Origin: Escherichia coli
GTDB lineage: Bacteria; Pseudomonadota; Gammaproteobacteria; Enterobacterales; Enterobacteriaceae
Strand: one strand, 5' to 3'
Assembly: GCF_003334405.1 (NCBI RefSeq)
Contig: NZ_QOWM01000018.1
Length of the DNA stretch: 64,000 nucleotides
The position numbers and the translations under genes are program-made. Position 1 is the first letter of the stretch, and every line of letters starts with the position of its first letter. Under the pieces are notes generated by a model, which saw only the letters and a list, made by a program, of their open reading frames with translations, was not told the DNA's origin and did no database searches. Of this stretch, positions 59,113-61,901 are shown in pieces.

Positions 59113-59291
59113 AGTGTATCTCCAGAATCCACATGTAATACCCATAAAGACCCCATAAGACACCTTTCGGATATCCAAGAGGTACTCAATAGATGTTTTT
59201 TTACTCTATACCGGTCCTGCATGTCAACAGAATATGAAATACCGATAATATATCCATGAGATATCCGAAAGGGATTTAAAAAAGTCAGAGC

Positions 59292-60071
59292 TTATGGAAT
59301 TCTTTTGAGCATAGACACCGCATCGGACTCAGGCATCGAAAACTGCACCCGGTGCCGTGCAGCCACATCCAGTGCAAACACCTTCGTGTAGACCTCCGTT
59401 GAGCTGATGGACTTATGCCCCATCAGGCTCTGCAGGACCTTCAGCGGTATACCGGCATACAGCATGTGCATCGCATAGGAATGGCGAAACGTATGTGGCG
59501 TGACCGGAACAGAGAATGTCACACCATCAGCGGCAGCGGCGGCAACCGCTTCCCCAATCCAGGTCCTGACCGTTCTGTCCGTCACTTCCCAGATCCGCGC
59601 TTTCTCTGTCCTGCCTGTTCGTTTATTACGCCGTTCCATGGGGATTTTCAGTGTGGCCACCATCGTCTGCAGCTGGCTGACGTACCAGGCGTCGGAGAGC
59701 GGAACCAGCCGGTGAGTCTGCTGACCGGCGGGCATCCTTCCTGCCGTCCTGGCGGCTTTTTCGGTCCGCTGCTTCAGAGTGGCCAGCTGCACAAACGGAT
59801 ACGGAGGCGTGAGCGAAAAATCCCCCCGCGTCAGCGCCAGTGCTTCATTAATGCGTGCACCGGTGTTCCACAGTGTGGCCAGCAGCATCTTGCGGCGCAG
59901 ATCCGGGACGTAATGGAGCAGGGCGCTCACTTCAGGGGCCAGCAGGTATTTTGGCAGTTCATCATGAACCATCGACATCTGGCGGAGTGCCAGCGCTGCC
60001 GGATAATCGATGGCAACAGGAAGCTGAGCGGCATCCCGGGCATGGTGTATCGGTGCCGGCAGGTGCTGCAT
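59292..60071 (-). CDS. tyrosine site-specific recombinase (multimer resolvase, XerD/ResD-like)
   Basis: 259 aa from ATG 60071; R..HxxR..Y motifs (HTFRHSYAMH, STEVYT). Confidence 0.75.
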   Translation of the reverse strand: MQHLPAPIHHARDAAQLPVAIDYPAALALRQMSMVHDELPKYLLAPEVSALLHYVPDLRRKMLLATLWNTGARINEALALTRGDFSLTPPYPFVQLATLKQRTEKAARTAGRMPAGQQTHRLVPLSDAWYVSQLQTMVATLKIPMERRNKRTGRTEKARIWEVTDRTVRTWIGEAVAAAAADGVTFSVPVTPHTFRHSYAMHMLYAGIPLKVLQSLMGHKSISSTEVYTKVFALDVAARHRVQFSMPESDAVSMLKRIP

Positions 60072-60072
60072 A

Positions 60073-60486
60073 TCAGTGTTCACTCCACGGGGAAACGTCG
60101 GGCAGGTTTTCCACAACACGGTACTTTCCCGGATAACGGAGCTGGTTACCGCCACGCGTCCAGACGGTGACAACAAAACCCCCTCCCTGGTTGTTTTCGG
60201 GGAGCAGGCGATCGCACTGCTCACTCAGCATGTGGATCACGAACGGCGCATCGCTGCCGTCTTCAAATACCAGTTCCAGCGCATCGCGGCCGTGCAGCGT
60301 TCCCTTACTGATGATGACGTACTCAGCTCCCCGCATCTCCCTGAGTAAATGTTTTGCCGCATCCGGGACAAGCAGCCTGGCTGCGCCGGCATTCCAGCTG
60401 AGGTAGACATATCCGGCCTGCGCCTGTACAGACTGCCAGTAATCCGTTCTGGCGACAGCCTGACCTTCATTCTCAATAAAAAACAT
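60073..60486 (-). CDS. hypothetical protein co-transcribed with recombinase
   Basis: 137 aa from ATG 60486 with AAGGAG RBS; stop abuts recombinase start. Confidence 0.5.
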   Translation of the reverse strand: MFFIENEGQAVARTDYWQSVQAQAGYVYLSWNAGAARLLVPDAAKHLLREMRGAEYVIISKGTLHGRDALELVFEDGSDAPFVIHMLSEQCDRLLPENNQGGGFVVTVWTRGGNQLRYPGKYRVVENLPDVSPWSEH

Positions 60487-60569
60487 GGGTGACTCCTTTT
60501 TTCTTTTCCGGGCAGGGACGGTCATGCGATAACGTCATCCATCATCACTGCCCTTACCGTCACGCCGTC

Positions 60570-60591
60570 TGATAACATCATGCCGTTATCA
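60570..60591. promoter_or_regulatory. candidate recombinase core site (TGATAAC-N8-GTTATCA)
   Basis: perfect 7-bp inverted repeat with 8-bp spacer ~45 bp upstream of the recombinase operon. Confidence 0.35.
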
Positions 60592-61053
60592 TCATCACCA
60601 TGATAACAAGCATCCATATAACCACGCCGTTAAATTACCGGAGAACCGTTTCCGTCAGATCCGACTTTCCGGAATATCACAACTTTCCGGAAGTGTACCA
60701 CGCTGAGGAAATAATCATATCGCTGTTTTCCGCCCCTGCGCGGCGCATCACAGGTCAGGGAAACAACACAACATATAGTGTCATAAGCAGCTGAATGTGG
60801 CACTACATGTTGTATTTACAGGAGGTAGCGTTGTGCGGAGATAGAGGAAGATCCGTGACCGCCGGAAACCGGATCTGCGCGGAAGAAAAGACGCAAATGA
60901 TATGATAATAAAAAACACACATAAAATCATATCAGATATGATTTTCATCATTGATGATGAAACCATATCTGATATTATCAGAAATCAGGAGCACACAAAT
61001 CATGCAGGATATTATTTTTACCTGTCAGAACATTATCAGATGGAGCGTGCAGG

Positions 61054-61311
61054 ATGGATGAAGAAAGGGGGTTTTCACTCAGTTATGAACAACTGACCCG
61101 GTTTGCGGAAAAACGCATCCGGGAATGCAATCTGGACAGCCAGGGCGCGATTTATCTCTGCGAGTCAGCCAAAGCCGGAGCCGTGCTGATCTTCTGGCAT
61201 GAACTGGCCATAAATGGCTATGCCTCAATGAATGCCATAAAGAGACAAGAGATCATTGACGCCGACTTTCAGCGCCTCAGAAACCTCATCTGGCCGGAGG
61301 ATGACAGGTAA
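61054..61311 (+). CDS. hypothetical protein
   Basis: 85 aa, preceded by overlapping 19-codon uORF 61002-61061. Confidence 0.45.
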   Translation: MDEERGFSLSYEQLTRFAEKRIRECNLDSQGAIYLCESAKAGAVLIFWHELAINGYASMNAIKRQEIIDADFQRLRNLIWPEDDR

Positions 61312-61901
61312 TGACCCAGAGCCGCCGACCGTCGCCACTGCAGCGGAGAGTGCTGATTGTGCTGGCTGCCCTTGATGAAAAACGGCCGGGCCCCGTGCTG
61401 ACGCGGGACCTGGAACGGGTGCTGGAGCGAAGCGGGGAAGCCCCGGTCTACGGGCCAAACCTGCGCGCCTCCTGCCGTCGTCTGGAGGATGCCGGCTGGC
61501 TGCGTACCCTGCGCGCCCCGAACCTGCAGCTGGCAGTGGAGCTGACGGACGCCGGCCGGGCCGTGGCACAGCCTCTGCTGCTGGCAGAACAGGACCGCAT
61601 CCGGGCAGAACAGCGTGCGGCAGAAGTCGTCGTACTGCCGCTGGTCCCGGCAGCAGGTCTGCCCGCAGGCGGCACTTCTGCCACTGATCTGGCGGTGGAG
61701 CTGAACGGCATGACGTATCAGGCCTGCCGTGGGGATTTTGTGGTGCGTCTCGACGGCAGCACCTGTCTGCAGTTATGGAATAAAGAAGGCAGAGTGGTAC
61801 GCCTGGAGGGCGATCCGCTGGAAGTGGCGCAGTGGCTGCAGGCCTGTCACGATGCCGGAATGGAGGTTCGTGTACAGGTTAATGAAAGCGTCACCCCGTA
61901 A
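61311..61901 (+). CDS. hypothetical winged-helix-like protein in GC-rich island
   Basis: 196 aa, TAATG overlap with upstream ORF; much higher GC than flanks. Confidence 0.5.
   Translation: MTQSRRPSPLQRRVLIVLAALDEKRPGPVLTRDLERVLERSGEAPVYGPNLRASCRRLEDAGWLRTLRAPNLQLAVELTDAGRAVAQPLLLAEQDRIRAEQRAAEVVVLPLVPAAGLPAGGTSATDLAVELNGMTYQACRGDFVVRLDGSTCLQLWNKEGRVVRLEGDPLEVAQWLQACHDAGMEVRVQVNESVTP

Follow-up and report, generated by a model that had tools for sequence, protein, structure and literature searches.

A ResD/rfsF-type resolution locus on an IncI1 plasmid and a nearby GATAAC palindrome that is very unlikely to be its core site

Features of the locus

The 64-kb stretch of DNA analysed here as a whole (the window) can be assigned to an IncI1 plasmid of the R64/ColIb-P9 type. 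Its top matches are IncI1/B/O plasmids at 97–98% identity. It carries a gene for a tyrosine recombinase, resD, preceded on the minus strand by a second gene, yedA, and by a leader that separates both from a 28-bp rfsF-type site. The neighbours of this module are impB/umuC, stbAB/parM, parA and colicin-region genes. The features referred to below are as follows.

59292–60071, minus strand: resD, a 259-aa tyrosine recombinase and multimer resolvase, last gene of the operon (open reading frame, identity to F ResD and Pfam match)
60073–60486, minus strand: yedA (ORF137), a conserved hypothetical ‘cargo’ gene of 137 aa, one base upstream of resD (open reading frame)
60528–60607: four GATAAC half-sites, at 60528–60533 (plus), 60571–60576 (plus), 60585–60590 (minus) and 60602–60607 (plus)
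60570–60591: perfect palindrome TGATAAC-ATCATGCC-GTTATCA
60585–60592 and 60600–60607: second palindrome, overlapping the first, GTTATCAT / ATGATAAC, with 8-bp arms and a 7-bp spacer
60601–60848, minus strand: conserved leader or accessory region, from the rfsF core to the cargo-specific leader (alignments including 27 leaders)
About 60603–60642: conserved leader block TCCGGTAATTTA...GTGGTTATATGG..GCTTGTTATCA
60657–60663, plus strand: extra half-site resembling an rfsF arm, AGATCCG (CGGATCT on the resD strand), possibly an operator or accessory site used by ResD
60658–60668: conserved leader block AAAGTCGGATC
60684–60701: conserved leader block GTGGTACACTTCCGGAAA
60692–60700, minus strand: candidate extended -10 element TGGTACACT, directed toward yedA–resD (consensus match)
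60766–60778: conserved leader block CTATATGTTGTGT
60849–60876: rfsF-type core (crossover) site, on the resD strand AGATCCGGTT-TCCGGCGG-TCACGGATCT

RefSeq versions of AP001918 and AP005147 were used as comparison records.

The recombinase and its operon

The tyrosine recombinase gene that a first-pass annotation had called at 59292–60071 is confirmed on the minus strand. Over 251 aa its product is 94% identical to ResD (the D protein) of plasmid F; the Pfam Phage_integrase domain spans residues 42–231, and the R..HxxR..H..Y set of tyrosine recombinases is present in the translation as R73, H193-x-x-R196, H219 and Y228. Matches to XerC-, XerD- and XerA-type NCBIfam models and to PDB entries fall under the family cut-offs. 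By its sequence the enzyme is the orthologue of F ResD in IncI1; records of IncI1 plasmids label the gene ‘site-specific integrase’ or ‘resolvase’. An rfsF–resD system has already been named for IncI1 plasmids, where rfsF is placed upstream of resD and gene sets are switched at that point (PMC8004404; PMC9412624). The description of the region as a resolution module is thus borne out, and the ResD/rfsF dimer-resolution system of an IncI1 plasmid is an already known, ordinary finding.

The 137-aa reading frame at 60073–60486 likewise stands, also on the minus strand. On the coding strand its junction with resD reads ...CAC TGA T ATG CAG..., and a GGAG lies 11 nt ahead of the resD ATG. Since stop and start are one base apart, the translational coupling claimed earlier is plausible, and resD is probably coupled to yedA in this way. 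It would be the final gene of a two-gene operon with yedA, as resD is after ccdAB in F. According to references cited in PMC7157771, ccd and resD form a single operon in F, and the title of one work cited there describes the D protein as a repressor as well as a resolvase. The predicted fold of YedA is mostly beta, and DNA-binding relatives were not found. Standard scans of the interval between yedA and rfsF returned no sigma-70 promoter on the resD strand (60490–60900) and no terminator.

The rfsF-type core site

Experiments on plasmid F define its rfsF site as a pair of 10-bp inverted repeats separated by 8 bp, AGATCCGNAA-N8-TTNCGGATCT, at which both fusion and resolution have been demonstrated (PMC8299605). 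An exact AGATCCG-N14-CGGATCT motif occurs once within the 64 kb, at 60849–60876, about 360 bp upstream of the start of yedA. Every related resD operon examined, those of F, R64 and ColIb-P9 among them, has this motif upstream at a nearly fixed distance. The core and the conserved TCCGGTAATTTA block are 233–245 bp apart (235 in most cases) in 14 of 15 loci retrieved independently, and the window conforms as well.

Against the published search pattern, AGATCCGNAANNNNNNNNTTNCGGATCT (two 10-bp inverted repeats with an 8-bp spacer, 28 bp in all), the outer 7 bp of both arms of the window site are exact. Three inner-arm positions depart from it, the window having GTT where the pattern has NAA and TCA where it has TTN; variation of this kind is also present among 27 related leaders. 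As the inner arms lie off the published pattern, that the 28-mer is active is an assumption, based on the conservation of its outer 7 bp and on the comparative evidence. The central 8 bp of the core are hypervariable between lineages.

The comparative evidence comes from the points at which plasmid backbones diverge. Homology between the window and R64 or ColIb-P9 breaks inside the 28-mer, and of 60 plasmid alignments, taken as a spread sample, 38 start or end within it or at most one base away (query 550–577, corresponding to window 60850–60877). Each flank of the 28-mer is found joined to other partners in other plasmids. On this comparative evidence, recombination appears to occur at 60849–60876.

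The leader between core and operon

The leader at 60601–60848 is common to F, Klebsiella, Enterobacter and Cronobacter plasmids, and the genes between it and resD vary from plasmid to plasmid. Within the extra half-site at 60657–60663, the bases TCGGATC are invariant in eight of eight leaders and at least 95% conserved across the 27-leader alignment; ResD may bind this half-site. A position-conserved TGnTAYACT, the candidate extended -10 element, is found in six of eight leaders and lies inside a block that is almost invariant in the 27-leader alignment. An Rfam scan of 60300–61200 gave a chance miRNA match (E = 0.55) and no other.

Comparison with known resolution systems

The closest parallel is the ResD/rfsF system of plasmid F. 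Apart from the near-identical recombinase, the two loci share the outer arms AGATCCG/CGGATCT in a 28-bp site, the placement of that site upstream of an operon ending in a resD gene that abuts the gene before it, and about 200 bp of homologous core-proximal leader, the extra CGGATC half-site included. They differ in their cargo (ccdAB in F, yedA in the window), in the inner arms and spacer (GTT-TCCGGCGG-TCA in the window, AAA-ACCCCAAG-TTA in F) and in the promoter-proximal leader, whose GATAAC palindromes have no counterpart in F. Upstream of the yedA–resD operon, the window core adjoins a conserved leader segment resembling F oriV1. Reportedly, Krause and Guiney in 1991 described crs as containing, besides direct repeats, a segment with homology to F oriV1. 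The Rsd/crs system of the Salmonella virulence plasmid and rfsF–RsdB of pSLT share with the window a ResD-like recombinase family and rfsF-type sites (PMC9412624).

With R64 and ColIb-P9 the window shares the gene order yedA–resD–parA–...–stbAB–impB and a leader that, with its palindrome, is identical between yedA and the proximal arm of rfsF. It differs from them in one base of the proximal arm (TCA in the window, TTA in these plasmids) and in having another distal half-site, spacer and distal flank. These distal elements are common to E. coli EcPF40 p2 and many other IncI plasmids, and in the window genes of the ydfA/ydeA type directly abut rfsF on the distal side. XerCD recombination at cer and psi resembles the present locus in that the core is flanked on one side by a conserved region of fixed length, about 200–250 bp, which could impose resolution selectivity. 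It differs in that the window recombinase is plasmid-encoded and is neither XerC nor XerD, its NCBIfam scores being far below the cut-offs, and in that the window lacks a dif/cer-like core at 60481–60900.

The GATAAC palindrome and its possible roles

The perfect TGATAAC-N8-GTTATCA palindrome noted previously is present at 60570–60591 as the sole copy in the window. The yedA ATG follows 84–105 bp downstream, and this promoter-proximal stretch of the leader is poorly conserved. The further copy placed at 60600–60607 needs a small correction: the interval holds ATGATAAC, whereas TGATAACA would occupy 60601–60608, one base further on. The leader had also been called AT-rich, which holds only marginally: GC content is 45% at 60530–60640 and 51% over the window as a whole.

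The window contains 47 perfect 7-bp inverted repeats whose spacers measure 6–8 bp (8 bp in 13 cases), and block shuffles gave a mean inverted-repeat count of 12.4; the geometry of the palindrome alone is not more than expected by chance. GATAAC is over-represented throughout the window (60 copies against 22 expected). Its local cluster is nevertheless not random: with four copies in 80 bp it is denser than any other in the window, and none of 200 random placements gave more than three. The segment carrying the palindrome is specific to the yedA-type leader. It is identical in all IncI-type leaders seen, but these are so closely related (97% or more) that selection on the palindrome could not show. 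The leaders of F, Klebsiella, Enterobacter and Cronobacter lack the palindrome, and its arms are not conserved in the 27 related leaders.

The first-pass annotation had proposed the palindrome as a candidate core site, which would make it the point of cleavage and strand exchange by the neighbouring recombinase. In its favour are the perfect 7-bp arms, the 8-bp spacer, the short distance to the recombinase operon and the additional half-sites close by; several observations speak against it. The arms TGATAAC are unlike AGATCCG/CGGATCT, the arms of rfsF on which ResD acts (PMC8299605); a proper rfsF-type site lies about 270 bases further upstream, outside the proposed interval; one of the 60 sampled alignments ends inside the palindrome, as against the 38 at the 28-mer; and the arms are not kept in leaders whose resD genes are closely related. 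The argument from arm length and spacer, on which the proposal drew, is weak because the window holds 47 similar repeats. That the palindrome is the core is very unlikely, and the fragment 60530–60640, suggested earlier as a resolution substrate, excludes the true core and should fail as one. Hardly more probable is a cer/dif-like site for XerC/XerD, or an accessory site at which a host factor would act in the resolution synapse. The ATAA...TTAT of the palindrome recalls the inner arms of dif and cer, and the palindrome and the conserved accessory region share one side of rfsF; the palindrome is, however, beyond the conserved part of the leader, at least about 260 bp from the core. A search of 60481–60900 for a Xer site (11-bp XerC/XerD arms with a 6–8-bp spacer) led to its rejection, the best alignment to dif, cer or psi arms having mismatches at 8 of 22 positions, no better than the window background, in which the best random matches have 6–7.

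Most likely the palindrome is either a lineage-specific regulatory element, whether an operator or a 5′-UTR hairpin, or without function. As an operator, the palindrome and the GATAAC half-sites would overlie a weak yedA–resD promoter (-35 TTATCA, 18 nt, -10 CATGAT) at which a dimeric repressor of plasmid or host origin sets the level of YedA and ResD. The position upstream of yedA is consistent with this, as are the candidate -10 in the palindrome loop, the four half-sites, which alternate in orientation at intervals of about 15 bp within the densest GATAAC cluster, and the restriction of the segment to the yedA-type leader. The promoter match is nonetheless poor (8 of 12, below the scan threshold), homologous leaders carry direct GAAAATnAT repeats in place of the palindrome, and a repressor candidate is not apparent, YedA being mostly beta and the arms recognised by ResD being different. 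The operator is a tentative possibility, on a par with the view that the palindrome does nothing and arose by chance in a leader rich in self-complementary words of the ATGAT/ATCAT type. The window-wide abundance of inverted repeats and of GATAAC, and the lack of conservation of the arms beyond the IncI complex, agree with a functionless palindrome; the GATAAC density, which beat all 200 random placements, and the identity of the region in all IncI-type leaders, closely related as these are, do not.

Somewhat less probable than either is an effect on the RNA. Three segments of the ATGATAAC type, if transcribed from farther upstream, would form mutually exclusive 5′-UTR hairpins (60585–60592 with 60600–60607, or 60570–60576 with 60585–60591) that affect the stability or translation of the yedA–resD mRNA. 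The predicted fold of the minus-strand leader at 60487–60600 has a free energy of -36.8 kcal/mol (z = -3.07), a stability reached by none of 200 shuffles, and its first hairpin is the palindrome. In addition, the middle arm is common to the two overlapping palindromes, and about 100 nt upstream there is the conserved candidate for an extended -10. On the other side, the leaders of Klebsiella, Cronobacter and Enterobacter fold no better than shuffles (z from -0.9 to +0.3), the Rfam scan gave no credible match, and the IncI-type leaders are so nearly identical that they offer no covariation. A conserved RNA element was rejected because homologous leaders outside the IncI type fold no better than shuffles.

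Two related proposals were also rejected. A plasmid-wide regulon sharing the operator is contradicted by the lack of other copies of the palindrome, or of ATGATAAC pairs, at other promoters of the window, which also weighs against the operator itself. An operator for YedA that travels with the gene does not agree with the upstream regions of yedA homologues in Cronobacter, Pantoea, Shinella and Thiocystis, which are unrelated and do not contain GATAAC, nor with the structural model of YedA, which has no DNA-binding fold.

A model for the locus

The locus is very probably the IncI1 version of the multimer resolution system of plasmid F, in which ResD acts at 60849–60876 and not at the palindrome. 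ResD would recognise the 28-mer by its outer arms AGATCCG/CGGATCT around a lineage-specific centre, and would cut and exchange strands where the central 8 bp meet the arms. Strand exchange of this kind would resolve plasmid dimers and, between plasmids, form and resolve cointegrates; the latter would account for backbones switching partners exactly at the 28-mer. The roughly 250 bp at 60601–60848 would serve as a conserved accessory and leader region of fixed length, in which ResD bound to the half-site at 60657–60663 could shape the synapse and repress the operon. The identity of ResD, the presence and conservation of the rfsF-type site and the clustering of breakpoints are observed here; the roles of the accessory region, half-site and promoter, like any role of the palindrome, are ones that we infer.

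More speculatively, the GATAAC array at 60528–60607 may be a previously undescribed switch, either an operator for an unnamed repressor or a 5′ UTR with alternative hairpins, whose two mutually exclusive palindromes set the dose of YedA and ResD in plasmids of the IncI complex, while the leader and the third ResD half-site act as the accessory region for resolution selectivity and autorepression. This extended scheme is doubtful.

The survey adds modest detail to a known system, namely the near-fixed distance between core and leader, the invariant third half-site, the hypervariable centre and the variable cargo genes. These leave the picture of that system unchanged, and the palindrome is a minor unexplained feature within it. 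The practical value lies in correct annotation, the ResD crossover of IncI1 and related resistance plasmids being the AGATCCG-N14-CGGATCT 28-mer. Because this site would be the point at which backbones and accessory segments are exchanged between plasmids, locating it explains mosaic junctions, and the hypervariability of its central 8 bp between lineages should limit which plasmids can fuse.

The recombinase and its operon

The two genes of the module, from ORF reading, are:

59292-60071, minus strand: resD, tyrosine recombinase, 259 aa
60073-60486, minus strand: ORF137 (yedA), 137 aa

The resolution module proposed here by the first-pass annotation is borne out: it is the already known ResD/rfsF resolution system of IncI1 plasmids, and its recombinase is the orthologue of the ResD (D protein) of plasmid F, with 94% identity over 251 residues. 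A Pfam Phage_integrase domain spans residues 42-231 of ResD, and the catalytic residues R73, H193, R196, H219 and Y228 are all present in the translation; against the XerC, XerD and integron integrase family profiles it scores far under the cut-offs. The rfsF-resD system has been named in papers on IncI1 and IncR plasmids, where rfsF is the exchange point of the 'Delta' (R64-type) and 'Col' (ColIb-type) gene sets (PMC8004404, PMC9412624). Thousands of enterobacterial plasmids match the resD region, the best being IncI1/B/O plasmids (97-98% over 1.7 kb). The gene order of the window (umuC/impB, stbB, parM/stbA, a 102-aa ORF, parA, the recombinase, ORF137, ydfA/ydeA-like genes, the colicin region) is that of R64 and ColIb-P9 from umuC/impB through the colicin region.

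In plasmid F, resD comes last in the ccdAB operon, immediately adjoining ccdB (F sequence; PMC7157771). The IncI1 operon has the same layout, with ORF137 replacing ccdAB. On the coding strand the ORF137-resD junction reads CAC-TGA-T-ATG; both ORFs of the proposed translationally coupled pair are confirmed, and the single base between stop and start makes the coupling itself plausible.

The probable crossover site

The rfsF site, at which ResD acts in plasmid F, is 28 bp long, with two 10-bp inverted repeats and a variable 8-bp spacer; its published search pattern is AGATCCGNAANNNNNNNNTTNCGGATCT, and both fusion and resolution have been observed there (PMC8299605, on plasmid fusion at the F site). 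The motif AGATCCG-N14-CGGATCT occurs exactly once in the 64 kb:

60849-60876: rfsF-type core by motif match, read on the resD strand as AGATCCGGTT-TCCGGCGG-TCACGGATCT

The outer 7 bp of both arms are those of F, whereas the inner arm bases and spacer differ from those of F and R64 (AGATCCGAAA-ACCCCAAG-TTACGGATCT); because of its inner arm bases, the site misses three positions of the published pattern. All related loci examined carry the same motif upstream of their resD operon (F, R64, ColIb-P9, two other IncI plasmids, and Cronobacter, Klebsiella and Enterobacter plasmids). An independent retrieval from species-representative genomes, using a pattern from another part of the leader (the DNA between core and yedA), gave 15 loci; 14 have the motif, 233-245 bp (mostly 235) upstream of the block that supplied the pattern. 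Across related loci the outer arms are invariant; much variation is seen in the inner arm bases and the central 8 bp. The central 8 bp (60859-60866) differs in almost every lineage (compared loci L001-L036), and G is invariably its final base. If full exchange needs spacer identity, spacers would partition plasmids into fusing and non-fusing groups.

Aligned with R64 and ColIb-P9, the window is near-identical from yedA to the proximal arm, and all similarity is lost inside the 28-mer. A BLAST search with window 60301-61300 was run against 72,556 plasmids and 60 rows were sampled across the ranking. Alignments ended at query 556-577 in 22 of these and started at query 550-565 in 16, so that 38 of the 60 had an end in the 28-mer (query 549-576) or at most one base from it; only one had an end inside the palindrome discussed below (query 270-291). 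Either flank of the site is found alone beside other partners, and in an IncR Klebsiella plasmid, for example, the ydfA-side flank has a degenerate version of the site at its junction. As judged from these alignments, the breakpoint pattern at the 28-mer is that expected for a site-specific crossover point, and 60849-60876 is very probably the ResD core. It lies outside the interval first proposed, and the test fragment suggested there, 60530-60640, does not contain it.

The conserved leader

Leaders of F, IncI, Klebsiella, Enterobacter and Cronobacter plasmids can be aligned over ~250 bp beside the core. A 27-sequence leader alignment shows several almost invariant blocks:

60766-60778: CTATATGTTGTGT
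60684-60701: GTGGTACACTTCCGGAAA
60658-60668: AAAGTCGGATC
about 60603-60642: TCCGGTAATTTA...GTGGTTATATGG..GCTTGTTATCA, partly fixed by the retrieval pattern in 15 of the 27 sequences

In the AAAGTCGGATC block the ResD arm recurs for a third time, as AGATCCG (60657-60663, plus strand). A candidate extended -10 element, GTGGTACACT (TGnTAYACT), is position-conserved in 6 of 8 leaders, with this ResD-arm-like half-site ~30 nt downstream; a standard promoter scan of the resD strand of the leader found no promoter. The D protein is described as both repressor and resolvase in a title cited in PMC7157771. Taken together, the blocks, half-site, -10 candidate and this title suggest that the conserved leader may be an accessory region of the resolution site, and that ResD bound to the half-site at 60657-60663 may also repress yedA-resD.

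The GATAAC palindrome

The core site had originally been placed on an inverted repeat nearer yedA:

60570-60591: palindrome TGATAAC-ATCATGCC-GTTATCA, sole copy in the window
60600-60607: ATGATAAC, the 'further copy'
60528: a fourth GATAAC

The palindrome is perfect, as described, and a second one, formed by GTTATCAT (60585-60592) and ATGATAAC with 8-bp arms and a 7-bp spacer, overlaps it. As a shape it is not special: the window holds 47 inverted repeats with perfect 7-bp arms 6-8 bp apart, including 13 whose spacer is 8 bp (12.4 in block shuffles), and arm length and spacer are therefore a weak argument for a core site. The AT-richness ascribed to the leader is marginal (GC 45% in 60530-60640 vs 51% in the window). 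The GATAAC cluster is special as a cluster, four copies in 80 bp being the densest in the window and never reached in 200 random placements. Window-wide, the hexamer occurs 60 times on both strands vs 22.5 expected from dinucleotide-preserving shuffles, an excess that codon-pair usage or composition may explain.

With an rfsF-type core elsewhere, breakpoints at that core and no conservation of the palindrome arms in the 27-leader alignment, the palindrome is very probably not the core site. Seen from the core, it falls just past the final conserved block, where the leader varies with cargo type; alignments to F-type and Klebsiella ccd-type leaders end around 60603-60633. Most other leaders have at the homologous position a direct repeat, GAAAATnAT, ~20 bp apart, and an inverted repeat of 5-6 bp at best. 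GATAAC is absent upstream of yedA homologues in Cronobacter and Pantoea plasmids (70-77% identity) and in the more distant Shinella and Thiocystis, where the upstream DNA is unrelated. As a Xer site the palindrome has 8/22 arm mismatches, no better than background. The IncI leader RNA folds with z = -3.07, the palindrome forming the first hairpin; homologous leaders do not fold well, and an Rfam scan of the leader region returned nothing. These results, with its single occurrence in the window, indicate that the palindrome is confined to the IncI-complex yedA-type leader.

There it may be an operator overlapping a weak promoter candidate (TTATCA, 18 nt, CATGAT); it may be a 5'-UTR hairpin, for which alternative pairing with the second palindrome is possible, or functionless, and the IncI-type leader sequences are mutually too similar to choose among the three.

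ORF137 and cargo exchange

ORF137 has no match in Pfam, NCBIfam, PHROG or PADLOC. Its homologues of ~140 aa (n = 276) are spread across Proteobacteria, with ~60% identity even in Thiocystis, and frequently have no adjoining recombinase; AlphaFold2 predicts a mostly beta fold with high confidence (pLDDT 90.6). ORF137 is best regarded as cargo carried by the resD operon rather than as a recombinase partner. A 398-aa E. coli protein labelled 'Tyrosine recombinase XerD' (AFDB A0A6D1P2I1) has a YedA-like start (76% identity) and appears to be a YedA-ResD fusion, the expected outcome of a one-base indel in the one-base gap.

The cargo between the conserved rfsF leader and conserved resD varies by plasmid (loci L003, L008 and L016-L020 compared with the window):

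ccdAB: F and one Klebsiella plasmid
yedA: IncI plasmids
other small ORFs: other Klebsiella, Enterobacter, E. coli (pAPEC-O2-R) and Cronobacter plasmids

In the Cronobacter cargo, yedA is one of four ORFs. Recombination at rfsF alone is insufficient to explain exchange of cargo between two conserved flanks.

Neighbouring repeats

Just past rfsF, a 22-nt unit, AAATCATATCAGATATGATTTT, occurs in three copies (60924-61018, spacing 36-37 bp), copy one being an 11/11 palindrome. The array lies upstream of ydfA/ydeA-like ORFs of 85 aa (61054-61311) and 196 aa (61311-61901), with a sigma-70-like match among its copies (60951-60978, plus strand), and looks like an operator array for a divergent ydfA/ydeA-like operon. 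On the other side of the module, the 180-bp gap from the resD stop to the parA start holds a perfect 13-bp inverted repeat, CCTTTCGGATATC / GATATCCGAAAGG (59163-59175 and 59260-59272), a candidate parA operator or centromere-like site. At the far end of the window, six exact copies of GTGCCAATCCGGT lie in both orientations within 3-1378. We take this 13-mer to be the conserved part of the IncI1 shufflon sfx repeats, another IncI1 hallmark; if so, an unrelated second system of the tyrosine-recombinase type (Rci) would be present in the window.
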